In this document: piece by piece, positions 2,285 to 62,745 of the stretch
How positions within the stretch are numbered: position 1 is the first letter of the stretch
Layout of the letters: every line of letters begins with the position of its first letter
Source: Candidatus Nomurabacteria bacterium GW2011_GWC2_42_20
GTDB lineage: Bacteria > Patescibacteriota > Minisyncoccia > Phycocordibacterales > UBA1550
Assembly (NCBI GenBank): GCA_000998425.1
Contig: LCDG01000001.1
Coordinates: forward strand, 10,558-74,557
Reading direction: 5' to 3'
Length of the DNA: 64,000 nucleotides
Translations under genes and position numbers: made by a program
Notes under the pieces: model-generated
Database searches by the model: none
The model's input: the letters and a program-made list of their open reading frames with translations, nothing else
Told to the model about the DNA's origin: nothing

Positions 2285-2761
2285 ATGAACAAAAGAAATA
2301 TTGTACTAGTAATCTTTAGTGTCATCTTTCTGATCGCAATCACTTTTGTTATGTATAAACAAAGTGTGAAAGATGTAGAACAACCTATAGCAGAACAGAC
2401 ACCAATAGCACAAGAAGAAGTACAAAAGACAGATTTTGGTTCAGAACTACCAAGCGATTTCCCAACCGACATCCCCACTGAAGAAGGTGTAGAAGTAGAG
2501 CAGAGTTACAGCTTAAATTATGAAGGACAAAAACAGCTTACTATCGTTTTTCCTTCCACAAAAACAGTCAAAGAAAACTACACTCTCTATGCTGATTTTC
2601 TTGAAAAACAAAATTGGATCGTTTCCAACAAATACGAGAGCGAAAAACTTTCCTCTATCTATGGCACAAAAGAAAGCAATGATATTAATGTGACTATTAG
2701 CCACGACTCCGATGGGGTTTCTGTGAAGTCGCAGGTGAGTATTAGTGTATTAAAGAAATGA
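2285..2761 (+). CDS. hypothetical membrane-anchored protein (N-terminal TM helix, acidic linker)
   Basis: 158-aa ORF with an N-terminal hydrophobic helix IVLVIFSVIFLIAITFVMY. It follows ligA tightly (gap 8 nt) and overlaps the next gene by 4 nt. Confidence 0.5.
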   Translation: MNKRNIVLVIFSVIFLIAITFVMYKQSVKDVEQPIAEQTPIAQEEVQKTDFGSELPSDFPTDIPTEEGVEVEQSYSLNYEGQKQLTIVFPSTKTVKENYTLYADFLEKQNWIVSNKYESEKLSSIYGTKESNDINVTISHDSDGVSVKSQVSISVLKK

Positions 2762-5298
2762 TTAAGAAAATAATTCTCACCACGATATTTGCATTTGCGG
2801 CATTACCTTCCATAGTATTGGCAGCAGTAGGAGATATGGTTACATATAATGTAACAAGCGTTGTCTATCCGTCCGACATTGTCTTTGATGGAACCAATAT
2901 GTGGGTGTCATCAAATGTTAATGGGTTTAGGGCTGCAAAAATCTCACCATCAGGTGTTGCAACATCATATCTATCAATGTCAAATGGCGGGCTTCCTGTT
3001 GGCATTGCTTTTGATGGGACCAATATGTGGGTAGTAGGTTACGTTGGTGATACTGTTACAAAGGTTTCTCCGTCAGGAGTTATGACCGATTATTTTGGTA
3101 CAGGAGCTGGTCCATGGGATATTGCGTTTGATGGTGTAAATATGTGGACAGTAAACGATGGATATACTGCAGGTGGCTACGATCCTTATACAGGTGAAGT
3201 TTATCCAGATACGTATGGTCCAACGAGTGTCACAAAAGTTTCTCCATCAGGCGCAATGACAACATATTATGGCACAGGCTCTTTAGCGGAAGGGATTGCA
3301 TTTGATGGTACAAACATGTGGGTAGCAAACTTTAGCAATAATAGTGTCACAAAAATTTCTCCCACAGGTGCCATGACAACATATACAGGAACTGGTGCTA
3401 ATCCATACCAACTTGCCTTCGATGGAACAAATATGTGGACGGCAAATTATGGCAATAATAGTGTCACAAAAATTTCTCCCACAGGTGCCATGACAACATA
3501 TACAGGAACAGGTGCTGGCCCTTGCGGTATTGCTTTCGACGGAACAAATATGTGGACAGGGAATTATAGCAATAATAGTGTCACAAAAATTTCTCCCACA
3601 GGTGCCATGACAACATATACAGGAACTGGTGCTAATCCATGTAATATTGCCTTTGATGGAACAAACATGTGGACCGCTAATCCGAGCGATAACACCGTTA
3701 CGAAGGTTGTCGCAGTATTACCAACTGGCACTGTCTCTGTCTACTCAAACATCTCATCCTCCTGGAGTATCACTGGCCCAGCAGCAATAACTGGCTCTGG
3801 CACCTCTCAAACATCAGTTTCACAGCCGACTGGGACGTATACTATTACCTGGGGCGCGATAGCTGGGTACACAACGCCAGCATCTCAGTCGTTCACCCTT
3901 ACCTCCGGCGGTACGATAAGTTTTAGTGGTACGTACTCGTTAAATTCCTACACCGTCTCCGCCACAGCAGGAGCAGGAGGTACCATCTCCCCAGCATCAC
4001 GTGTGGTCACATACGGCAACACCACCACCTTCACCGTAACTCCAAACGCTGGCTATACAGCCTCAGCTTCAGGTTGCGGTGGTTCACTCTCCGGCACCAC
4101 CTACACCACTGGAGCCATCACTGGAGCATGTACGGTTAGCGCTACTTACACGGCATCTATAGCTACGCCAACAGCATATATTTCTGCACCATCAACAGAC
4201 ACCTCTGTTTCTCAAAATACAGCAGTTGCTTTTTCTGGTAGTGGAACACCAATTCCTTCTACTTCAATACCAGCAACGCTAACATCTGTAAATGTTGGGT
4301 CAGTACAAAATTATGCCAACATGGCTGGACCATCTGTGATCCCGTCTCTCTGTCAATCTGGGGGATATTCAAGTGGGTATTTAGTAGCAATTCAATATAC
4401 TCCAGGTCAAATAGATTCACTTTTCCACTTTACTTATCAATGCACGAATGATACATACTCCTGCCCAGCCGATTACACGCTATCTGGAACAAATTGTATT
4501 TTTCAACCACTGATAATAAGCTACGAATGGCGTGAAGGTAACTGTACTACAGGAACCCTTCTATCATCTGCGTCAAGCTTTAATCTCTCAACTCCAACAC
4601 AAGGCACTCGTACTATATATCTTCGTGTAAAAGATTCTCAAGGCACCTGGTCAACAAATTGTCCGTCACGTGTTATTACTATTACATCATCCACCCCAAC
4701 CTCTCCCACAATCTCTGGACCCTCCACTTTAGTCACAGGACAGAGCGGAACATACTCTTTCGTATCAACAGACCCACAAGTGGAGCAAATCAGCTATGCG
4801 GTAGACTGGAATTCAGACGGAACAGATCTGTGGATGCCATACGGTTCAGTCCCACCACCTGGGAGTATGACATATGTAAACTCCGGAGTATCACAATCAG
4901 CATCTAAGTCTTGGGCAACACCCGGTACCTACACAGTCAGAGTCCTAGCTCAAGACACTTGGGGTAACAACTCAGCATGGACAACATACACTATCACTGT
5001 GTCAGACCCTCAACCATGTACAGCAGGAGTAGTAGACTCTTCTGGTTCATGGGCTCCAACATGCGCAACCTCTGCAACATGCCTCACTCCACCTGACCCA
5101 TCACAACTCACAAACCAGCCCGGTATTCAAATTGGCCTCTGTCCAACGCCAGAATACACCGGCACTGCCTACCGCGCCTGCTCCACAGCAACCATCACAT
5201 GTACTCCTGCCACCTCCTGTGGAGACAATACCTGCAACGGCTCAGAAACTATCCTTACTTGTCCAGCAGATTGCAAGGGGAGGTATCAGCAGTTCTAG
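2758..5298 (+). CDS. secreted multi-blade beta-propeller repeat protein (Vgb/streptogramin-lyase-like repeats), Thr/Ser-rich linker, Cys-rich C-terminal domain
   Basis: 846 aa; signal peptide MIKKIILTTIFAFAALPSIVLA. There are seven repeats of the pattern ...VTK(I/V)SP(S/T)G.MT.Y.GTGA.P..IAFDGTNMW..N... After them come a Thr/Ser/Gly-rich segment and a C-terminus with many Cys. Confidence 0.7.
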   Translation: MIKKIILTTIFAFAALPSIVLAAVGDMVTYNVTSVVYPSDIVFDGTNMWVSSNVNGFRAAKISPSGVATSYLSMSNGGLPVGIAFDGTNMWVVGYVGDTVTKVSPSGVMTDYFGTGAGPWDIAFDGVNMWTVNDGYTAGGYDPYTGEVYPDTYGPTSVTKVSPSGAMTTYYGTGSLAEGIAFDGTNMWVANFSNNSVTKISPTGAMTTYTGTGANPYQLAFDGTNMWTANYGNNSVTKISPTGAMTTYTGTGAGPCGIAFDGTNMWTGNYSNNSVTKISPTGAMTTYTGTGANPCNIAFDGTNMWTANPSDNTVTKVVAVLPTGTVSVYSNISSSWSITGPAAITGSGTSQTSVSQPTGTYTITWGAIAGYTTPASQSFTLTSGGTISFSGTYSLNSYTVSATAGAGGTISPASRVVTYGNTTTFTVTPNAGYTASASGCGGSLSGTTYTTGAITGACTVSATYTASIATPTAYISAPSTDTSVSQNTAVAFSGSGTPIPSTSIPATLTSVNVGSVQNYANMAGPSVIPSLCQSGGYSSGYLVAIQYTPGQIDSLFHFTYQCTNDTYSCPADYTLSGTNCIFQPLIISYEWREGNCTTGTLLSSASSFNLSTPTQGTRTIYLRVKDSQGTWSTNCPSRVITITSSTPTSPTISGPSTLVTGQSGTYSFVSTDPQVEQISYAVDWNSDGTDLWMPYGSVPPPGSMTYVNSGVSQSASKSWATPGTYTVRVLAQDTWGNNSAWTTYTITVSDPQPCTAGVVDSSGSWAPTCATSATCLTPPDPSQLTNQPGIQIGLCPTPEYTGTAYRACSTATITCTPATSCGDNTCNGSETILTCPADCKGRYQQF
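3290..3700 (+). repeat. three near-identical ~120-bp tandem DNA repeats inside the propeller gene (blade duplications)
   Basis: The unit agcaataatagtgtcacaaaaatttctcccacaggtgccatgacaacatatacaggaac... recurs at about 3334, 3454 and 3571, with a period of 117-120 bp. Confidence 0.6.
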
Positions 5299-7914: not shown

Positions 7915-7985
7915 AGCGGGGTAGAGAAGCGGTATCTCATCAGGCTCATAACCTGAAGACGCCCGTTCGATTCGGGCCCCCGCAA
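7915..7985 (+). tRNA. tRNA-Met (anticodon CAU; a 1:72 mismatch suggests the initiator type)
   Basis: Cloverleaf: D-stem gaga/tctc, anticodon stem tcagg/cctga with loop cTCATaa, T-arm gcccg-ttcgatt-cgggc. No CCA is encoded. Confidence 0.7.
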
Positions 7986-8026
7986 CACGAAAATTACAAA
8001 AATGCCGGCAGCTAGAATAAGATAAT

Positions 8027-8103
8027 GTCGGCGTAGCTCAGTTGGTTAGAGCATGGCACTCATAAAGCCAAGGTCGGTGGTTCGATCCCACCCGTCGACA
8101 CCA
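8027..8103 (+). tRNA. tRNA with CAU anticodon (elongator Met or lysidine-modified Ile2); CCA encoded
   Basis: Acceptor gtcggcg/cgtcgac, D-arm tagctcagttggttagagc, anticodon loop cTCATaa, T-arm ggtgg-ttcgatc-ccacc, followed by the 3' terminal sequence a-cca. Confidence 0.8.
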
Positions 8104-8136
8104 GAAAAACTCATTGATGAGTTTTTCTGGTGTCGA
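8095..8136 (+). terminator. perfect hairpin overlapping the 3' end of the tRNA (tRNA-processing/terminator structure)
   Basis: tcgacaccagaaaaactcat-tg-atgagtttttctggtgtcga. Confidence 0.45.
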
Positions 8137-8274
8137 AATTCAAATCAAATACATGATTTGTTCTGGTGGGATAAGTCCCTGTGTCCAAGACACGATTCAG
8201 CTGAATCGCCGTCGACACCCGCAGGTTTGTTTTGCGGACAGTTTCCTGTTAGAATGCGCATGTGAGAAAAATTT

Positions 8275-8348
8275 GCGGTCGTAGCTCAGCTGGTTAGAGC
8301 GCCCGCCTGTCACGCGGGAGGTCGTGGGTTCAAGTCCCATCGACCGCG
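8275..8348 (+). tRNA. tRNA-Asp (GUC)
   Basis: Perfect acceptor gcggtcg/cgaccgc, anticodon arm cccgc-ctGTCac-gcggg, T-arm gtggg-ttcaagt-cccat. Confidence 0.85.
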
Positions 8349-8349
8349 C

Positions 8350-8397
8350 AAATACAAAAATTACCTAACGCTGCTGCGCTGGGTAATTTTTGTATTT
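8350..8397 (+). terminator. 16-bp AT-rich perfect hairpin after tRNA-Asp
   Basis: aaatacaaaaattacc ... ggtaatttttgtattt. Confidence 0.4.
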
Positions 8398-8514
8398 AGG
8401 ATTGAAAAAATGGGCTAAATAGTGTATCGTGTCGAAGTGTCAGTGAGCCGATGTAGGTGTTTTGGTAGGTCTGCAAGAAGACAATAACTGTCTGTGATGT
8501 GCGAATAAAAATAA

Positions 8515-8590
8515 GCCGATGTAGCTCAGTTGGTAGAGTGCGTCCTTGGTAAGGACGAGGTCTCCGGTTCAATCCCGGACATCGGCTCCA
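8515..8590 (+). tRNA. tRNA-Thr (GGU); CCA encoded
   Basis: Acceptor gccgatg/catcggc, anticodon arm cgtcc-ttGGTaa-ggacg, T-arm ccggttcaatcccgg, 3' t-cca. Confidence 0.85.
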
Positions 8591-8663
8591 AATAAGATTT
8601 AGTTTAATTAACGACCACATTCTAGATTTGCTATTGGTCTGCGTGCTGTGTATAATTTAGCGT

Positions 8664-9116
8664 ATGTCTAATCTAAAAATGCCAAGGGGTGAGTGCCAGA
8701 ATTGTGGTGGGGAGCCCGCACGTGCAGGGTATAAATATTGTAGTAATGTTTGTCAGCTTGCGTACCAGCATAAATCGTATATTATAGACTGGAAGGCTGG
8801 AACGGTTAGCGGGTTATCTAGTCTTGGGACAGTGTCCACTCATATCAAACGCTACTTGCGAGAAAAGTATGGGAATAGATGTGTCATTTGTAGTTGGGCG
8901 CAGGTTAATGTTAAGACAGGTCAGGTTCCTCTTGTTGCAGATCATATTGATGGGAAATGGCGCAATAATACTGAAAGTAACCTGCGTCTAATATGTCCAA
9001 ATTGTGATGCAATTTCCCCAACGTATGCCGCATTAAATAAAGGTAATGGACGGATTAATCGCGTGCAGAGCCGAAGATCGCAGGAAGCTCGTTTGTTAGT
9101 AAAAAAGAAGGTGTAA
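8664..9116 (+). CDS. HNH-family endonuclease (Cys-rich Zn-finger plus HNH motif) embedded in the tRNA cluster
   Basis: 150 aa; two CxxC pairs at the N-terminus, then ...VADHIDGKWRNNTESNLRLICPNCDA... (H-N-H with a CxxC clamp). The stop lies 2 nt before the next tRNA. Confidence 0.7.
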   Translation: MSNLKMPRGECQNCGGEPARAGYKYCSNVCQLAYQHKSYIIDWKAGTVSGLSSLGTVSTHIKRYLREKYGNRCVICSWAQVNVKTGQVPLVADHIDGKWRNNTESNLRLICPNCDAISPTYAALNKGNGRINRVQSRRSQEARLLVKKKV

Positions 9117-9117
9117 G

Positions 9118-9191
9118 CCGACCTAGCTCAATTGGTAGAGCAACGGTATCGTAAACCGTAGGTTCCGGGTTCAATTCCCGGGGTTGGCTCA
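9118..9191 (+). tRNA. tRNA-Thr (CGU)
   Basis: Acceptor gccgacc/ggttggc (one G-U pair), anticodon arm acggt-atCGTaa-accgt, T-arm ccgggttcaattcccgg. Confidence 0.85.
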
Positions 9192-15977: not shown

Positions 15978-16048
15978 TGCGAGATCGTCTAATGGTAGGA
16001 CATCGCCCTCTGGAGGCGGTTATCTTGGTTCGAATCCAGGTCTCGCAG
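15978..16048 (+). tRNA. tRNA-Gln (CUG)
   Basis: U1:A72 acceptor tgcgaga/tctcgca with discriminator G, anticodon arm tcgcc-ctCTGga-ggcgg, T-arm cttgg-ttcgaat-ccagg. Confidence 0.8.
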
Positions 16049-16360
16049 CCGATTTTAAGTTTTTTGCGCGACCAGTAGGTCATTATGGTGAATGAGAAGC
16101 GTTCCTTTACAAAAAAGCTAAAAATCGCGTCGCAGTGTCGCGCATAGCGACACAAGACGTGAACTAATTAGCCCGCCATAGCAATGGAGACAATAAAAAA
16201 GTTGAGACAGGCTCAGTGACTAAAAATCCACAGTGAGTTATTTTTTTCTGAGGTCTTCGTCCAAGAGTCTGCGGTCAAGCGACTGCGTCCAGGACGTGAA
16301 CCTGCTGGTTCAAAATCTACTTATTCAAAAGCAAATAATTCGTCTACGTCGCTAATAACC

Positions 16361-21358: not shown

Positions 21359-22207
21359 ATGAAAAAGATTATGCGCGTTATTTTGGTTGTCGCAGTTGTG
21401 GGGGTAGTTTTCCTTATGCTTTCCTACACAAGCAGTCACAATATGGGCGTGTTCAACCCGAAGGGAACAATTGCCCATGCGGAAATGAACCTTATTGTCA
21501 CGACAACGCTACTCATGCTTATTGTGGTTATCCCTGTATTCGTTATGCTCGCAATTTTTTCATGGAGATACAGGGCTGGTAATACGAAGGCAAAGTATTC
21601 TCCAGACTGGCATAAAAGTATCGCGTTGGAAGTGATTTGGTGGATAATACCAATAATAATTATTGCTATTATTGCAAGGATGACGTGGATTAGTAGTCAT
21701 GATCTTGATCCATATAAACCGATTGCTTCAAGTGTTGTTCCAATTACAATAGAGGTTGTTGCTCTTGAGTGGAAATGGCTGTTCATTTATCCGGATCAAA
21801 ACATCGCTACTTTGAATTTTGTACAATTGCCAATTGATACACCTATTAATTTTAGGATAACTGGCGACGCACCGATGAATTCATTTTGGATTCCCCAGCT
21901 TGCGGGACAAATATATGCAATGGAGAAAGGGGACTATGCAGGTGTTTCCGCAAACTACAGTGGATTTGGGTTTTCGGGAATGAAGTTTACAGCGAGGGCG
22001 AGCTCGCAAGACGAGTTTGAACAGTGGGTGCGAACAGTTCGTATGTCACCAAGCACACTTAGTATTGATGAATACACCAAGCTTGCAGAAAAAAGTAGGA
22101 ATAATGATGTCTCGTACTACTCATCTGTTCACAAAGGTTTGTATGATAAAATAATAATGAAATTCATGGTGCCAGCGAATGTAATAATGACGAAAATGAA
22201 TATGTAA
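21359..22207 (+). CDS. cyoA: cytochrome o/bo3-type ubiquinol oxidase subunit II (no CuA site)
   Basis: Two N-terminal TM helices plus a cupredoxin-like domain ...[25 protein letters not shown]... lacking the CuA Cys/His ligands, resembling quinol-oxidase subunit II. ATG at 21359; the track uses TTG at 21320. Confidence 0.8.
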
Positions 22208-22211
22208 TATT

Positions 22212-24164
22212 ATGTTTGGAAACCTCACACTCTCTGCGCTCCCACATGAACCAATCACCGTTGGAGCTGGTATTTTTATGGCTATCGCTGGCTCAAGCAT
22301 TATAGGACTTTTGTTTTATTTCAAGCGCTGGAGGTGGCTTTGGGCAGAATGGCTCACATCAGTAGATCATAAAAAGATCGGTGTGATGTACATCATTTTG
22401 GCTTTCGTGATGCTTCTCCGCGGCTTTTCTGATGCCGTAATGATGCGATTACAGCAAATATTGTCAGTCGGTGATTCTGTGGGGTATTTGCCACCAGAGC
22501 ATTACGACCAAATATTTACGGCACACGGAGTGATCATGATCTTTTTTGTTGCGATGCCGCTCATGTTTGGGTTAATCAACCTGGCGGTGCCACTTCAGAT
22601 CGGAGCGAGAGATGTTGCTTTTCCTTTTCTCAACTCGATGAGCCTTTGGCTCACTGTTTTTGGCGCGATGTTGGTAAACTTGTCGCTTGTAGTGGGGGAG
22701 TTTGCGGCGACTGGGTGGCTCGCATACCCGCCACTTTCGGGCATTGTGTATAGTCCTGGTGTAGGGGTGGACTATTATATTTGGGCGCTACAGATTGCAG
22801 GTGTCGGAAGCTTGATCTCTGGAATAAATTTCTTTGTAACTATACTTATGATGCGTTGCAAGGGGATGACACTCATGAGGATGCCAGTTTTTGTGTGGAC
22901 CGTCCTTGCTTCTATGACGCTCGTTATTATTTCTTTTCCAATTCTTACAGCCACGCTCGGAATGCTCTCATTGGATAGGCTTCTCGGAATGCATTTTTTT
23001 ACGTCGGACTTTGGCGGGAATGCAATGATGTATGTGAACCTTATTTGGGCGTGGGGGCATCCTGAGGTATATATTCTCGTATTACCAGCATTCGGTATTT
23101 TTTCTGAAGTTGTTTCAGTATTTTCACGCAAGAAACTTTTTGGATATACATCGATGATCTACGCGACAGTTGCTATTACGTTTTTGTCATTTGTGGTTTG
23201 GGTACACCACTTCTTTACGATGGGCGCTGGCGCAAATGTAAATGCTTTCTTTGGCATCATGACAATGATCATTGCCATACCAACTGGTGTGAAGGTTTTT
23301 AATTGGCTATTCACAATGTTTCGCGGACGCATCGTGTTTGCATCGCCAATGCTCTGGATGATTGGGTTTATTTTTACATTCACAATAGGTGGGATGACAG
23401 GAGTTTTGCTTTCCGTGCCAGCTGCTGATTTTCAGCTACACAACAGTTTATTTTTAGTCGCGCATTTTCACAATACGATTATCGGTGGTGTAGTATTCGG
23501 ATACTTTGCTGGGATCACATATTGGTTTTCAAAGATTTTTGGCTTCAAATTGAATGAACGACTCGGCAAGGCTGCCTTTTGGCACTGGATTGTAGGCTTT
23601 TTTGTAGCGTTTGTACCTCTTTATATTCTTGGTCTAATGGGAATGACGAGACGCATAAGCCATATAGATGAATCTACTGGATGGCAGACACTTTTGATCG
23701 TTGCTGGTATCGGTGTAGTAATTATCGGCATCGGTGTCCTGCTACAAATTTTGCAAATGATTGTAAGTATCCGCGACCGCAAGCACAACATGGATACGAC
23801 CGGAGATCCATGGGACGGTAGGACTTTGGAGTGGTCTACATCTTCACCTCCGCCTTTCTATAACTTTGCTATTATCCCAACAGTGCACGGTCGCCACCCT
23901 TTTTGGGATACGAAGTATGGCGAATCCGAACAGGTTGCTCCACACTATGAGGATATTGAAATGCCGAGTAATACGCCGATGGGTTTGTACATTGCATTTG
24001 CGAGCGTGGTATTTGGCTTTGCAATCGTGTGGCATATCGTATGGTTAGTGGTGTTAGCGTTTGCAGCTATTTTGGCGCTTCTTATTGCGCGTTCACTTGA
24101 TTACAATACTGAGTATGTTGTGAAGGCAGAGACGATCGCAAAAATTGAAGCTAAAAGAAAATAA
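22212..24164 (+). CDS. cyoB: heme-copper quinol oxidase subunit I
   Basis: 650 aa, ~14 TM helices; conserved [22 protein letters not shown] and HFHNTIIGG motifs (heme and CuB His ligands). Confidence 0.95.
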
Positions 24165-57933: not shown

Positions 57934-60900
57934 ATGAATAAAATTTCACAAAATAAACTGAGTCCCATTATGGCAGTATTACTCAGTCTCTTTGTCGTGC
58001 TATTTTGGGGTACGCAGACCGTTTACGCGTTAAATATTCTTGACTCTGATTTGAACAGCAACGGAATAATAGACAGCACTGAAACAGAAGTTGTTGTCAC
58101 CTCCAATAAATCTCTCCAATCTGGTGAATATAATTTTGGTAATCTAACAATAACGAATAATGCAGTACTTACGTTGGTTGGAGATCCGCTTTCACCAGAT
58201 CAATTTAAAGGAGTAAAGATAAATGCAACAAATATTTCTGTTTCTTTCGGCTCTCGTATCTCTGCTGATGGACAGGGGTATATTTCTGGTCCTGGAACGT
58301 CCTTAGTGCCTGGCATTAGTGTTGGCGCAAGTTACGGTGGATCAGGTGGTGGTAATTCTGCAACATCAACATATGGCTCAGCAATGACACCAATGGATTT
58401 AGGAAGTGGAACAAGTGGCTCAAAAGGTGGGGGTTCTATTAGACTTGTCGTGTCTAACACACTTTTAAATAATGGGGATATTTCCGCAAATGGACAATCG
58501 TATCGCACGAGTGGCGGAAGCATACATGTGACCACTAATATATTAGTTGGTACAGGTGTGTTTAATGCAAATGGCGCTCGTACTTATTGGCCGAATCAGT
58601 TTGCCGGCGGTGGCGGAAGGATAGCGGTACACTATCAGCAATCGTCATTCACTGGAAGCGCTAAAGCAAATGCGGGTGTCTTTTGTCTTTATGGCTGCAA
58701 CCCGGCAGGTGGCGCTGGAACAGTAGTCTTTTTTGATACTGTGAATAATGATTTGTACACAGGTACTTCTTGGCGCTTTCAAAAAAATGATGAACCTATT
58801 CGCTTAAACCGTATCGTTGTCTCGAATGGCTCTTCGGTAACGATGGACGAGGGGGTTGCTATCACAGCAAACGAGCTTATTATCAGTGGCGCAACCTCAC
58901 TCCCTCTGTCAAAAGGAAGTTTGCTCACAATACACAAAATTACTGTCGATGGAGCAACTATTGTCTCATCTGGAGAAGAGACAATAGTTGCCGATATTCT
59001 CAAGCTCATAAATTCAGCAGTAGTCACTGTTGTTCCGATGCAGACACTTACGCTTTCAGTTCCCAATGTGACTATCGATACAAGCTCACGTATCTCGGCC
59101 GACGCAAAAGGGGATACTGCTGGCTCTGGTTTCCCAAGCAGTATATACGCTGGCGGAAGTCATGGAGGTGTCGGGCTCAACAACACGGCGACATCAACAT
59201 ACGGCTCTGCGAAACAGCCGACAACTCTAGGTAGTGCTGGAGGTGCGCCACATGCTATTGGCGGAGGAGCTATCCGCCTTGTTGTTTCGGGGTCACTTGT
59301 GAACAACGGCGTAATATCAGCCGATGGCAACACATCATCATCGGGTGGAAGTATCTATGCGACTGTAGCCGACATGTCTGGGTCTGGAACGTTTCATGCA
59401 AATGGCGGAGCTCTTGGCAGTGGAGGATATTTCTCTGGGCCTGGTGGTGGCGGACGTGTCGCTGTTTATTATCAAACATCATCATTTAGTGGCGCAATAG
59501 AAGCATTGGGTGGATGCGGGAGCTACGACGGATGGAGCCGTGTCTGTGCTGGGTACGGCACTGTTGTGATACAACAGTCGGATGTTCCATGTACCATCAA
59601 CTGCTATTCAAACATTATGTTCCTACCTGGGGTTATGGGGTCGAGATTGTATGATGAGAATGGTCAAGAATTGTGGGTTTCGAGTGACGATTCTTTGCAA
59701 TCAACTCTTGCAATGAACGCAAGTGGAAAAAGTATAAATTCAATATATACTAATGATGACACCCATAGGAATCATGGAGAAATCGATGAAAGTGGTCTCG
59801 TGGATGATGTGTACGGTTCAAATATTTATGAGTCATTTGTTAACGACCTACGTGTATGGAAGGGAGATAATGACAATGGAATAATTCATGATTACGCATT
59901 CATACCATATGACTGGCGATTGTCGCTTGAGGATATTGTAAATAATGGCGCAACATCAACGCCAGATAAATTGTCATATGCTGATTCTCCTGCTTCAGGT
60001 CAATATATTCTGAAACAACTCGAAGCACTCCAAAAGTCTTCTCGCACAGGCAAGGTGACTATTGTTGCGCACTCAAACGGCGGGCTTGTCACAAAAGCTC
60101 TTATTGAAAAACTCAAGCTAGACAATAATCCATTATATAATCAAATAGATAAAGTGATTTTCGTTGCGGTGCCTCAAGTTGGGACACCAGATGCGGTTGC
60201 CACGCTACTCCATGGGAATAGTCTTGGGCATGGTGCTGTTATGACCACCGCTCGCTCTCGTGAATTGGCAAAAAATATACCGACGATATATAACCTCCTT
60301 CCTTCAGCTCAATACTTCAATACAGTTGAACCTGGTTTTGCGGTTGATAAAGTTGTTTCGTTTGAAAATAAACCTTCCTTTAGTTCGCAATTATCGCAAT
60401 ATGGAGTTTATGTTTCAAATGAAAATGAACTCAAAGGGTATGTTTTGAATGATGATAGTCGCTCTGCCCCTGTCTATGCAGACACAAACAGTCCTGCAGT
60501 TGGCAATCGGACTCTTTATGACGATGCACAAAGAGTGCATACTGTCTTGGATAATTGGCAACCAGCATCAACCACAAAAGTGATTCAAGTGGCAGGATGG
60601 GGAGCGGAAACACTTGCGGGTATAGACAATGTTGAAGCAGTGTCTGTTCCTGCTTTGGGTATTTTCACACACACAATCAATCTTCGCCACGTTGTGGATG
60701 GCGATGGAACCGTTGTTGTCCCAAGTGCGCTGTGGATGGCGACATCGACACCTGGGGTTGAGAGGTGGTGGGTAAACCTGATTAGAAATAATGCAGGTCC
60801 TACTATCGATCGTGACCACCGTGATATCTTGGAAGTTGATAATTTGAGAAATTTTATTAAATCAGAAATAAAAGGTTCTTTATTTAGTGATTCTAGTAAT

Positions 60901-62745
60901 ATTGTGGTTAATGCAACCTCAACGCTAATTTCAGAAGGTGAGCGTCTCCACTTCACACTCCATTCGCCCCTCACTCTCGGCATCACTGACACTCAGGGTC
61001 GCTATACAGGTCTTGACCCTGTAACAGGGGAAATCAAGGAAGAAATCCCTAGCACCACCTACAAGCAGTACGGAGAAGTACAGTTCCTCTCTGTTCCTGT
61101 GGGGCTTCAATACACCTTGAAACTCAAAGGGTACGAGACAGGCACTTTTGCTCTTGATGTGGAAAAGCAAATCGGCAATACGGTTACAGAATCAACATCA
61201 TTCCAAGCAATTCCAACTGCGACAAGCACTGCGGTAATGATGGACATTTCCTCAGTCTTTGAGGTTGCAAGTTCCACTCTGGTTATTGACCAGAATGCTG
61301 ACGGAGTCATTGATGCATCCCTTGAGGCAGCTCCAAGCGGTGTAACAATTTACGACCTTACGGCACCAGTAACTACGGCAACCCCTACAGGTACTCTTGG
61401 CTTAAATCAATACTACACTTCCTCTGTTACGATAACACTGATTAGTGAAGACACCGCTCCTCTCGGAGAAGTGTCTTCTGGTGTAGTAATTACTAAGTAC
61501 TCACTCGATAGCGGAACTACGTGGAATACTTACAGTACCTCAACTCCACTCACTATTGTCACCGAAGGCACCACCGCGCTTCAGTACTACTCAGTAGACA
61601 ATAATGGCAATACTGAGACACCAAAGACGCTTACGCTCAATATTGATACGGTTGCCCCAACCATTTTCGCCTCAGACACTTCCGCAGAGCAACTTACTAT
61701 TGAAGGAACCACTCTTACTGTTCCCGCCACAACAGAAGACACGATAGACCCAAGTCCAACCCTCACCACAAATGTTCCACTCACACAGACGTTTGTTCTG
61801 GGAGTAACGAGTATATTGCTAACCGCACAGGATCTGGCAGGAAACATCGCAACTTCGAGTATCGCAGTCACTATCTACTCAAGCCCTACCGCAGACCCTG
61901 ACGGTGATGGTGTACCAAATCAAGACGATGTGAAGCCGTTTGACGCTACCGTCTTTGCAAACCTCACCATTCCAGCAGAATATGCATTCTGGGAAAAAGA
62001 GTCATTTGATCTACCTTTCTCAGTGGCAGGGAAAGGGAATGTTACACTCTCACTCTCTAATACTTACTACAAAGTCGAAACATCTCCAATTAAGGACAGT
62101 GTTGTGGCTATTGTCCCCGCAACAGTTTTGACAGTTGATGGTGTTGTCACTGTTTCTTTCTCTCAAGATACTAAGGAACTCAAGACGTATACACTCACTC
62201 TTACAACCACCAAAGGAAATACAAAGGAACGTAAGTCTCTTAAAGAAAAGCGAGACCATGAATCAGATGAAGGGCGAAGGCATGATCTCGAAAAGGAACT
62301 CGATTTTGCAGATGCTCCTATCACGCTTAGTATTACAAATACAACGGCAAACAAAACAACGTCACAGATAAGCGTGATAAATATCTATGATAAACAGCAG
62401 ACTGCCCAACTTCAGTACAAATACAAAGATACTGACTACAGCACCACGCTTCTTCTTAAATCTGATGACGTGCTGAAAACAAAGAAGGGACAGCCACTTG
62501 AGCTTACGGTAAAGGTGACTGGAATCAAGAAAGATGTTCCTTTCACTACAAATATATCTGGTAACTTCACAATCCTCAGTGTAGTACAGGAGGAAGAGCA
62601 CAAAGACGATGATGATCGTAAGCAGACGAAATTCTCCCTCTTCTATCCGCTCTCAACACAGTCAACTCAAGAAAATATCACCATTACCACAACTGTCAAC
62701 GGCATAACATCGACTGATGTGGTGGGGGTGAAGTTTGAGGAGTAG
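57934..62745 (+). CDS. giant secreted multidomain protein (1603 aa): signal peptide, two homologous Gly-rich beta-helix-like modules, lipase-like alpha/beta-hydrolase domain, Ig-like/Thr-rich segments, DPDGDG Ca-binding motif, C-terminal ~180-aa module
   Basis: Internal duplication (GGSGGGNSATSTYGSAMTPMDLGSGTSGSKGGGSIRLVVS... vs GGSHGGVGLNNTATSTYGSAKQPTTLGSAGGAPHAIGGGAIRLVVS...). The hydrolase domain reads FLPGVMGSRL...GKVTIVAHSNGGLVTKALIEKL (GHSxGG nucleophile elbow). The C-terminal module is homologous to ORF 63196..63777. Confidence 0.8.
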   Translation: MNKISQNKLSPIMAVLLSLFVVLFWGTQTVYALNILDSDLNSNGIIDSTETEVVVTSNKSLQSGEYNFGNLTITNNAVLTLVGDPLSPDQFKGVKINATNISVSFGSRISADGQGYISGPGTSLVPGISVGASYGGSGGGNSATSTYGSAMTPMDLGSGTSGSKGGGSIRLVVSNTLLNNGDISANGQSYRTSGGSIHVTTNILVGTGVFNANGARTYWPNQFAGGGGRIAVHYQQSSFTGSAKANAGVFCLYGCNPAGGAGTVVFFDTVNNDLYTGTSWRFQKNDEPIRLNRIVVSNGSSVTMDEGVAITANELIISGATSLPLSKGSLLTIHKITVDGATIVSSGEETIVADILKLINSAVVTVVPMQTLTLSVPNVTIDTSSRISADAKGDTAGSGFPSSIYAGGSHGGVGLNNTATSTYGSAKQPTTLGSAGGAPHAIGGGAIRLVVSGSLVNNGVISADGNTSSSGGSIYATVADMSGSGTFHANGGALGSGGYFSGPGGGGRVAVYYQTSSFSGAIEALGGCGSYDGWSRVCAGYGTVVIQQSDVPCTINCYSNIMFLPGVMGSRLYDENGQELWVSSDDSLQSTLAMNASGKSINSIYTNDDTHRNHGEIDESGLVDDVYGSNIYESFVNDLRVWKGDNDNGIIHDYAFIPYDWRLSLEDIVNNGATSTPDKLSYADSPASGQYILKQLEALQKSSRTGKVTIVAHSNGGLVTKALIEKLKLDNNPLYNQIDKVIFVAVPQVGTPDAVATLLHGNSLGHGAVMTTARSRELAKNIPTIYNLLPSAQYFNTVEPGFAVDKVVSFENKPSFSSQLSQYGVYVSNENELKGYVLNDDSRSAPVYADTNSPAVGNRTLYDDAQRVHTVLDNWQPASTTKVIQVAGWGAETLAGIDNVEAVSVPALGIFTHTINLRHVVDGDGTVVVPSALWMATSTPGVERWWVNLIRNNAGPTIDRDHRDILEVDNLRNFIKSEIKGSLFSDSSNIVVNATSTLISEGERLHFTLHSPLTLGITDTQGRYTGLDPVTGEIKEEIPSTTYKQYGEVQFLSVPVGLQYTLKLKGYETGTFALDVEKQIGNTVTESTSFQAIPTATSTAVMMDISSVFEVASSTLVIDQNADGVIDASLEAAPSGVTIYDLTAPVTTATPTGTLGLNQYYTSSVTITLISEDTAPLGEVSSGVVITKYSLDSGTTWNTYSTSTPLTIVTEGTTALQYYSVDNNGNTETPKTLTLNIDTVAPTIFASDTSAEQLTIEGTTLTVPATTEDTIDPSPTLTTNVPLTQTFVLGVTSILLTAQDLAGNIATSSIAVTIYSSPTADPDGDGVPNQDDVKPFDATVFANLTIPAEYAFWEKESFDLPFSVAGKGNVTLSLSNTYYKVETSPIKDSVVAIVPATVLTVDGVVTVSFSQDTKELKTYTLTLTTTKGNTKERKSLKEKRDHESDEGRRHDLEKELDFADAPITLSITNTTANKTTSQISVINIYDKQQTAQLQYKYKDTDYSTTLLLKSDDVLKTKKGQPLELTVKVTGIKKDVPFTTNISGNFTILSVVQEEEHKDDDDRKQTKFSLFYPLSTQSTQENITITTTVNGITSTDVVGVKFEE

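Follow-up and report, generated by a model that had tools for sequence, protein, structure and literature searches.

The stretch of DNA analysed here, 64,000 nucleotides (nt) of Candidatus Nomurabacteria bacterium GW2011_GWC2_42_20 (contig LCDG01000001.1) and referred to below as the window, carries on its plus strand, at 2758-5298, an open reading frame (ORF) for a protein of 846 amino acids (aa), in which a signal peptide, a beta-propeller, four beta-sandwich modules and a Cys-rich tail can be distinguished. The propeller has been shown to be homologous to that of the streptogramin B lyase Vgb, complete and seven-bladed, and the protein is a new member of a known, very large and experimentally uncharacterised family of extracellular propeller proteins. 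It is concluded that the protein belongs to the Vgb fold family yet, judged by the residues aligned with the active site of Vgb, by its signal peptide and by its additional modules, falls outside the streptogramin B lyases as enzymes. It is, with moderate probability, a secreted and probably cell-surface-associated binding or adhesion protein of an uncultivated, ultra-small Parcubacteria-type (Patescibacteria) bacterium, with a non-catalytic Vgb-family head on a stalk. Public records contain a protein identical over all 846 aa under the name "Cell wall/surface repeat protein" for groundwater metagenome-assembled genomes (MAGs) of the Parcubacteria group, such as GW2011_GWC1_42_11, and under "hypothetical protein" for a MAG of Candidatus Campbellbacteria, while the nearest distinct ortholog (P0002), 83% identical, belongs to a Minisyncoccia MAG.

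Propeller Fold and Family Assignment

The propeller domain occupies aa 23-326 (2824-3735, plus strand), as found by Pfam, profile, AlphaFold2 and Foldseek analyses. The motif F-D-G-x-N-M-W occurs in it seven times, at aa 43, 85, 124, 182, 221, 260 and 299, with spacings of 42, 39, 58, 39, 39 and 39 residues, the third unit containing a 19-residue insertion, and all seven copies were recovered in register by an independent repeat search. The blades start at about 2875, 3001, 3118 (the one with the 19-aa insertion), 3292, 3409, 3526 and 3643 on the plus strand. The preliminary description of this DNA, made from the sequence alone, had compared the repeats with a six-bladed propeller; the count has to be corrected to seven, which is the number of repeat units, corresponds to the 28 strands of the structure model and is the commonest among the retrieved relatives (among 120 listed relatives, a motif count of seven, doubled to about fourteen where a protein has two propellers). 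The Asp-Gly-(Thr)-Asn-Met-Trp core that it had placed in each unit is indeed found in all seven, and the second element, NSVTKISP, occurs exactly only three times, in blades 4-6, the other blades carrying the variants DTVTKVSP, TSVTKVSP, FRAAKISP and DNTVTKVV.

Scans of the full-length protein against Pfam and NCBIfam gave no match above threshold. When aa 22-326 were scanned alone, the Virginiamycin B lyase family (PF24684, Vgb_lyase) was matched at 65.0 bits (expect value E=6.6e-18), with a gathering threshold of 50 bits, and the miss in the full-length scan is attributed to the filters of HMMER acting on a compositionally biased sequence. Close relatives, when rescanned, scored 57-82 bits, and a search of 5.8 billion proteins returned 615 matches, many of which had a precomputed PF24684 assignment. 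The comparison of the propeller with PDB sequences by phmmer gave only insignificant lactonase-like matches, and a family profile was required: a 37-sequence profile of the domain detects Vgb of S. aureus (2z2n) with E=8e-25, the match extending over the whole domain, and Vgb of S. cohnii (2qc5) with E=4e-19.

The AlphaFold2 model of the propeller, calculated from a 36-sequence alignment, has a mean predicted local distance difference test (pLDDT) value of 93.6 and a predicted template modelling (pTM) score of 0.91, with 28 beta-strands arranged as seven four-strand blades. In the Foldseek search against the PDB, the top six matches were Vgb/streptogramin B lyase entries, with template modelling (TM) scores of 0.79-0.83 and E values of 1e-14 to 4e-16, the best being 2z2o and 2qc5 (TM 0.80-0.82, E about 1e-16), at an identity to Vgb of only 17-19%. 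In the model, the first strand (aa 24-31) comes before blade 1, and at the C-terminal end the last blade is left with three strands; from this strand order, the N-terminal strand probably completes blade 7 and closes the ring. The earlier suggestion of a Vgb-like propeller is borne out by the family score above the cut-off, by the profile match to 2z2n and by the fold matches, and the non-propeller fold that had been named as the outcome to be watched for gave way to a confident propeller in the structure prediction.

Positions of the Vgb Active Site

The similarity to Vgb, as known from the structures of the S. aureus (2Z2N, 2Z2O, 2Z2P) and S. cohnii (2QC5) proteins, covers the seven blades of about 40 residues each and the framework P-x-G-I-x-x-D/G...-(L/I/M)-W-...-N-x-I/V-x-K/R-I-...-G-x-x-T-E/T-Y. 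In blades 6 and 7 of the enzyme, conserved polar side chains are found close to the sites for Mg2+ and substrate (PMC8916777). With Vgb aligned to the family hidden Markov model (HMM), its H228, E268, H270 and E284 correspond to C256, N293, C295 and P309 of the window protein, and Y18 lands in an unaligned insert column. The entry title of 2z2p in the PDB documents H270 as essential ("catalytically inactive H270A"), and it is C295 that stands in its place. The resemblance noted in the preliminary description thus stops short of the catalytic residues, all four aligned positions being replaced. Unlike Vgb, the window protein has C, N, C and P at the catalytic and Mg2+ positions, is secreted and bears four further modules and a Cys-rich tail; the Vgb chains comprise 299-300 aa, as against 846 aa here, with a signal peptide and about 520 further residues. 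Of what characterises a streptogramin B lyase (EC 4.2.99.-), an enzyme that opens streptogramin B to a linear form by C-O elimination, it has neither the His at the H270 position nor its partners H228, E268 and E284 nor a single domain of about 300 aa without signal peptide, and there is no reason to expect an action on streptogramins.

The same positions are hypervariable in the family. At the catalytic columns, the 36 aligned relatives have F, Y, I, M, E, R, N, S and other residues. In a set of 178 canonical 39-residue blades taken from relatives, the near-invariant framework consists of I-A-F-D-G-T-N-M-W, S-V-T-K-I-x-P-x-G, T-T-Y, G-x-G and P, and the highest entropy, 3.87 bits, belongs to the residue after the conserved Pro, the place taken in Vgb by Y18, H228 and H270; the next most variable are unit positions 14, 36 and 37, i.e., the positions of E284 and E268. 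Of the 11 differences between the window protein and its ortholog in blades 4-7, 8 fall within these variable loops.

The two Cys residues at the positions of H228 and H270, C256 (3523-3525) and C295 (3640-3642), belong to loops of two neighbouring blades, 6 and 7; the 83%-identical ortholog retains both, the wider family does not. Together with a weak similarity to the SGL/gluconolactonase and the seven-bladed lactonase families, their retention gives some ground for an extracellular enzyme with another chemistry on the propeller face (lactonase, glycan-active or redox), perhaps using both of them. Such an enzyme is nevertheless considered unlikely: no conserved polar set emerges from the family at these positions, only the structural framework is conserved, and the partner domains are adhesion and spacer modules, not catalytic ones.

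Signal Peptide, Stalk Modules and Cys-Rich Tail

The protein begins with a Sec-type signal peptide (2758-2823, plus strand), recognised by eye, with the putative cleavage site, also placed by eye, between MIKKIILTTIFAFAALPSIVLA and AVGD; the cleavage context is identical in the ortholog (between VLA and AVGD). Neither a lipobox Cys nor a prepilin motif was seen on reading the N-terminus, and in the whole 846-aa protein the Pfam scan and the sequence gave no N_methyl (PF07963) match or G-F-T-L-I-E-type motif.

After the propeller, the first module, aa 327-395 (3736-3942, plus strand), had no match in the Pfam scan, and phmmer showed it to be repeated in tandem within other large surface proteins (P0058, P0066); it can be described from its sequence as a beta-sandwich-like, presently unclassified module. 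It is followed by an InlB B-repeat (aa 397-466; 3946-4155, plus strand), matched by PF18998 over aa 397-471 at 23.9 bits, which is just above the gathering threshold of 23.6 bits; more than 200 homologous InlB B-repeats were among the matches, and 11 homologous fragments match PF18998 themselves. The MAFFT alignment of C-terminal fragments stacked all of them on the InlB region and was used only for the Pfam scan of each member.

The third module, of PKD-like type (aa about 470-645; 4165-4692, plus strand), is interrupted by about 90 inserted residues, Cys among them (aa about 497-587). Its conserved part reads YEWREGNCTTGTLLS...RVKDSQGTWSTNCPSRVITIT, also YEWREGNC...RVKDSQGTWSTNCPSRVITIT, and the K319L-like PKD family is matched by the split module at 22 bits, which is below the cut-off, while homologous fragments do match K319L-like PKD. 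This module (YEWREGNC...WSTNCPSRVITV) was also observed to tolerate large insertions after its first strands, and the insertion point holds an entire seven-bladed propeller in P0012, P0017 and L003:3449-6157, as against the Cys segment of about 90 aa here. The fourth module is probably a PKD domain (aa 646-755; 4693-5022, plus strand) recognised by AlphaFold2 and Foldseek, with weak direct Pfam support: the PKD families PF00801/PF18911 scored 18-22 bits, under their cut-offs, and homologous fragments reached E=1e-9 to 1e-10. In the AlphaFold2 model of aa 466-846, confidence is limited to both PKD-type parts, with pLDDT values of 82-86 at aa about 585-645 and of 93-96 for most of aa about 646-755, apart from a lower-confidence loop at aa about 686-705 inside the PKD domain; aa 466-565 stay below 50 and most of the tail below 55. 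The best Foldseek match of the confident part is the PKD domain 4xed, with a target-normalised TM score of 0.86 and 30% identity.

The Cys-rich C-terminal tail, delimited by sequence (aa 756-846; 5023-5295, plus strand) and ending in CGDNTCNGSETILTCPADCKGRYQQF, had no match in the Pfam and NCBIfam scans, and a homologue search with 94 aa of this tail gave no candidates, although identical proteins are on record. Its ending, CG(D/N)NxC...ETxxxCPxDC(K/Q)xxY(Q/K)QF directly before the stop codon, lies at 5212-5295 (aa 819-846), and the same ending was observed to close Patescibacteria proteins that are otherwise differently built (P0002, P0121, P0122, P0124, P0126 and L003:3449-6157). This ending may be a C-terminal sorting or anchoring module.

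The C-terminal half is Thr/Ser-rich, as the preliminary description had it, and its Cys residues are gathered in two clusters, at aa about 530-640 and 756-846. The cell-surface stalk proposed there is broadly right, in the form of the InlB B-repeat, PKD-type beta-sandwiches and a Cys-rich tail; the stalk is a chain of folded beta-sandwich modules and not a low-complexity linker.

Distribution of the Family and Proposed Function

In an exhaustive search with a profile against 1.84 billion cluster representatives, the limit E<=1e-30 was passed by 3,943 proteins and the limit E<=1e-10 by 29,670; many are giant, with up to 6,643 aa and several propellers. At least 567 loci were found in a scan of one genome per species. 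The most similar of them are those of Patescibacteria (Yonathbacteria, Saccharibacteria, Paceibacterota), DPANN archaea and Bdellovibrionales, and the more distant ones, at 35-45% identity, of Acidobacteriota, Actinomycetota, Chloroflexota and others. The fusion partners in the relatives include Big_12, the peptidoglycan-binding PG_binding_1, CARDB, cadherin-like domains, collagen repeats and subtilase. A prepilin methylation motif is present in at least nine of the listed relatives, two of which (P0069 and P0084) have a prepilin N-terminus and adjoin other pilin-like genes. Propellers of the Vgb_lyase family at 28-47% identity were also observed on 19 IMG/VR contigs classed as viral (L091-L109); PHROGs gave no match for any part of the window protein.

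Patescibacteria are organisms attached to other cells, and little is known of the molecules by which they recognise their hosts. An extracellular location of the window protein is indicated by its signal peptide, by the InlB and PKD modules, by the extracellular and prepilin fusions of the relatives, by the giant size of many of them and by the presence of an archaeal S-layer protein (1l0q) among the fold matches; a role in binding or adhesion is inferred from the fusion partners, from the pilin-linked relatives and from a precedent in Saccharibacteria, in a cultivated strain of which a pilin with a seven-bladed propeller of another repeat type is required for efficient host binding (PMC11623550). 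Both this pilin, PilX2, and PilY1 of P. aeruginosa are type IV pilus proteins that use a seven-bladed propeller outside the cell in attachment, whereas their propellers, RCC1-type in PilX2 and modified in PilY1, are not of the Vgb family, and the window protein differs from both by its Sec signal peptide and by the lack of a pilin N-terminus. In its stalk modules (aa 397-466 and 585-755), assigned to the same families, the window protein is comparable with bacterial surface proteins with InlB B-repeats and PKD domains, which have another head domain; no leucine-rich repeats (LRR) and no LPXTG occur in the window protein.

In the proposed mechanism, the propeller would serve as the ligand-binding head, its specificity would be set by the hypervariable loops of that face on which Vgb has its active site, and the stalk modules would hold the head away from the cell; the likeliest candidate for the ligand would be a component of the envelope of another cell. 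Several points weigh against this adhesin-like role. No ligand, localisation or expression data were found for any member of the family. No LPXTG, lipobox or C-terminal transmembrane helix is present in the 846-aa protein, and because a recognised anchor is absent, its association with the surface is put forward only as probable. The loss of the active site is measured against H228, E268 and E284 (and Y18), which we take to be the Mg2+-binding and catalytic partners in Vgb, the roles of the first three reportedly going back to Korczynska et al. in 2007. Moreover, a metal site or a disulfide at C256/C295 is possible from the placement of the two residues, and with it another chemistry would be thinkable.

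A structural envelope or surface-layer (S-layer)-type component, comparable with the YVTN propeller and PKD protein of Methanosarcina, has been weighed as well. The M. mazei protein 1L0Q, an archaeal S-layer protein, is among the fold matches, at 25% identity, and is likewise extracellular, with a seven-bladed propeller followed by PKD domains; its propeller is of the YVTN repeat family, the likeness being one of fold and not of demonstrated sequence closeness, and the window protein adds to this plan the InlB and Cys-rich modules. The name given by the submitters at NCBI, cited above, and the position of the gene among the housekeeping genes ligA and gatCAB would suit such a component too. 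It is, however, held to be rather improbable, for the architecture varies freely and the ortholog swaps its middle modules entirely, which would be unusual for a lattice former.

For the binding protein proposed here, a more far-reaching version may be formulated, namely, that the FDGTNMW propeller is a widespread head for the recognition of host or prey in ultra-small episymbionts (the Candidate Phyla Radiation (CPR) and DPANN) and in predators, with its specificity set by the hypervariable loops, that the block 2285-5298 is an exchangeable cassette with a membrane-anchored 158-aa partner, and that the ending ...CPxDCKxxYQQF is an undescribed sorting or anchoring signal of Patescibacteria; taken as a whole, this version is doubtful. 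Surface propellers with hypervariable loops, some of them fused to pilins, are in any case a reasonable set of candidates for host recognition, and nothing in the overall picture would surprise a specialist.

Tandem Repeat of Blades 4-6 and Its Assembly

Blades 4, 5 and 6 are encoded by three 117-nt units (3292-3408, 3409-3525 and 3526-3642, plus strand). Tandem Repeats Finder detects one array only (3295-3681), with a period of 117 nt (39 codons), 3.3 copies, a score of 564, 84% matches and no indels, which is far above chance. The unit had been given as 120 base pairs (bp) in the preliminary description and is three shorter, and the three blades that were called near-identical over 3334-3690 prove to be only 83%, 88% and 86% identical in pairwise nucleotide comparison; near-identity is retained for a core of 58 nt, which is 100% identical in the three copies (3335-3392, 3452-3509 and 3569-3626, plus strand). 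Between blades 4 and 6 the exact match extends to at least 70 nt. To blades 4-6, blade 7 shows only about 50% and blade 2 about 65% nucleotide identity.

The ortholog, which also has seven blades, keeps the residues specific to single blades: blade 4 has V-A-N, blade 5 opens with Q-L, blade 6 has T-G-N, and blades 5 and 6 both end in P-C. The orthologous blades 4, 5 and 6 are 85%, 90% and 91% identical in nucleotides, and the paralogous ones 83-88% in the window and 77-85% in the ortholog. Since each of these blades is closer to its ortholog counterpart than to its own paralogs, the triplication was shown, on the evidence of this comparison, to be older than the split from the 83%-identical ortholog. 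A recent duplication, which had been the first of two explanations offered for the repeat, was rejected on the same figures (85-91% against 83-88%).

The second explanation, gene conversion, fared better, for the 58-nt tract. Synonymous variation was counted in those degenerate codons that specify one and the same amino acid in blades 4, 5 and 6: in the window, it affects 1 of 18 such codons in the core and 7 of 10 outside it (Fisher p=0.0007), and in the ortholog 8 of 17 and 5 of 10, respectively (p=1.0). The simplest reading of these counts is that short-tract gene conversion in the lineage of the window has later homogenised the core. Against it stands the less economical alternative that the identical core is ancestral and has decayed only in the ortholog. 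Gene conversion, if so, would have been limited to a tract within a fold whose repeat number is fixed by the structure.

The repeat had also been expected to be a hotspot for assembly problems, and this was seen in the public scaffold L002 of the same sequence, where a gap of 100 N falls inside the blade-5 core (window 3455-3506): the left flank ends at window 3506 and the right flank starts at 3455, so that 52 nt are duplicated on both flanks. Because L002 breaks exactly within the core, the repeat is an assembly hazard, of the kind that breaks short-read scaffolds. The gap and the short-read origin of all the data could be taken to mean that the blade number has been collapsed or misjoined and the identical cores are an artefact, which is very unlikely, given that 17 public contigs from several pipelines and assemblers, including k127 and k141 contigs spanning the 58-nt core, encode the identical 846 aa, that the ortholog, an independent sequence, agrees in its seven blades and in the residues specific to each and that seven blades give a confident closed propeller; an incomplete record (P0241) also matches residue for residue. 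The gene is real and correctly assembled. The copy-number variation or collapse that had been anticipated was not seen in the 17 contigs or in the ortholog, and a change in the copy number would presumably be selected against, a closed propeller requiring a set number of blades.

Consequences for Resistance Annotation

Membership in Vgb_lyase, a family that counts thousands of secreted multi-domain members, must not be taken as antibiotic resistance. A genuine streptogramin B lyase, i.e., an antibiotic-resistance enzyme like Vgb, is the least likely of all the alternatives and hardly credible, for although PF24684 is scored above its gathering threshold, the fold is that of Vgb and a CPR survey lists "streptogramin lyases (vgb)" among the antibiotic-resistance-like genes (PMC8651080), the four aligned active-site positions are replaced and hypervariable in the family, and a secreted multi-domain protein of 846 aa with 17-19% identity is set against a single-domain Vgb of about 299 aa. 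The window protein and the sampled relatives lack the catalytic residues, and such proteins would be false positives in resistome counts (cf. PMC8651080).

Genomic Context

The propeller gene lies between ligA and gatC-gatA. Directly upstream of it, a 158-aa ORF with an N-terminal hydrophobic helix (2285-2761, plus strand) overlaps its start by 4 nt (ATGA), and because of this overlap, the two genes are probably co-transcribed and translationally coupled; a promoter-like site was found at 2248-2277, ahead of the 158-aa ORF. At the locus of the ortholog (L001), the counterpart of the 158-aa ORF is 78% identical, the 4-nt overlap is the same and the flanking gatC/gatA are kept. No family could be assigned to the 158-aa ORF in the Pfam, NCBIfam and PHROGs scans. 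In one public variant (L086), a 34-bp deletion (window 2713-2746) alters its last residues.

Some public contigs have their ends at the borders of this gene pair. L086, L087 and L088 all begin exactly at 2285, the A of the ATG of the 158-aa ORF, and the ends of L088 and L089 fall precisely on 5298, where the stop codon of the 846-aa ORF has its last base, L088 being the 3,014-bp block itself; L087 runs past 5298 into unrelated sequence with an L28-like protein (read from the translation) and an M50 peptidase. In de Bruijn assembly, such a pattern of contig ends is that of a 100%-identical block with more than one flanking context, which suggests sharing, duplication or exchange of the block 2285-5298. 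When metagenomes were searched for the other junction, downstream of the block, the known contig of 3,988 bp was the sole match, and the second context, resting on this one contig, could be a chimera.

On the scaffold L002 of the same genome (L002:1-2604), ligA has directly upstream of it a gene for a prepilin peptidase, three genes of pilin-like (N_methyl) type and a small unannotated ORF, all about 2.5-5 kilobases from the propeller gene. Elsewhere in the window, a 1,603-aa ORF with an N-terminal hydrophobic segment (57934-62745) may encode another large surface protein, and the N-termini of two adjacent ORFs of 282 and 650 aa (21359-24164) resemble, by look only, those of cytochrome oxidase subunits II and I, which would deserve notice in a genome of CPR type. 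A cluster at 7915-9190 comprises five tRNA genes (Met, Met, Asp, Thr, Thr), with a 150-aa ORF (8664-9116) between both tRNA-Thr genes, and a separate tRNA-Gln gene is located at 15978-16050.

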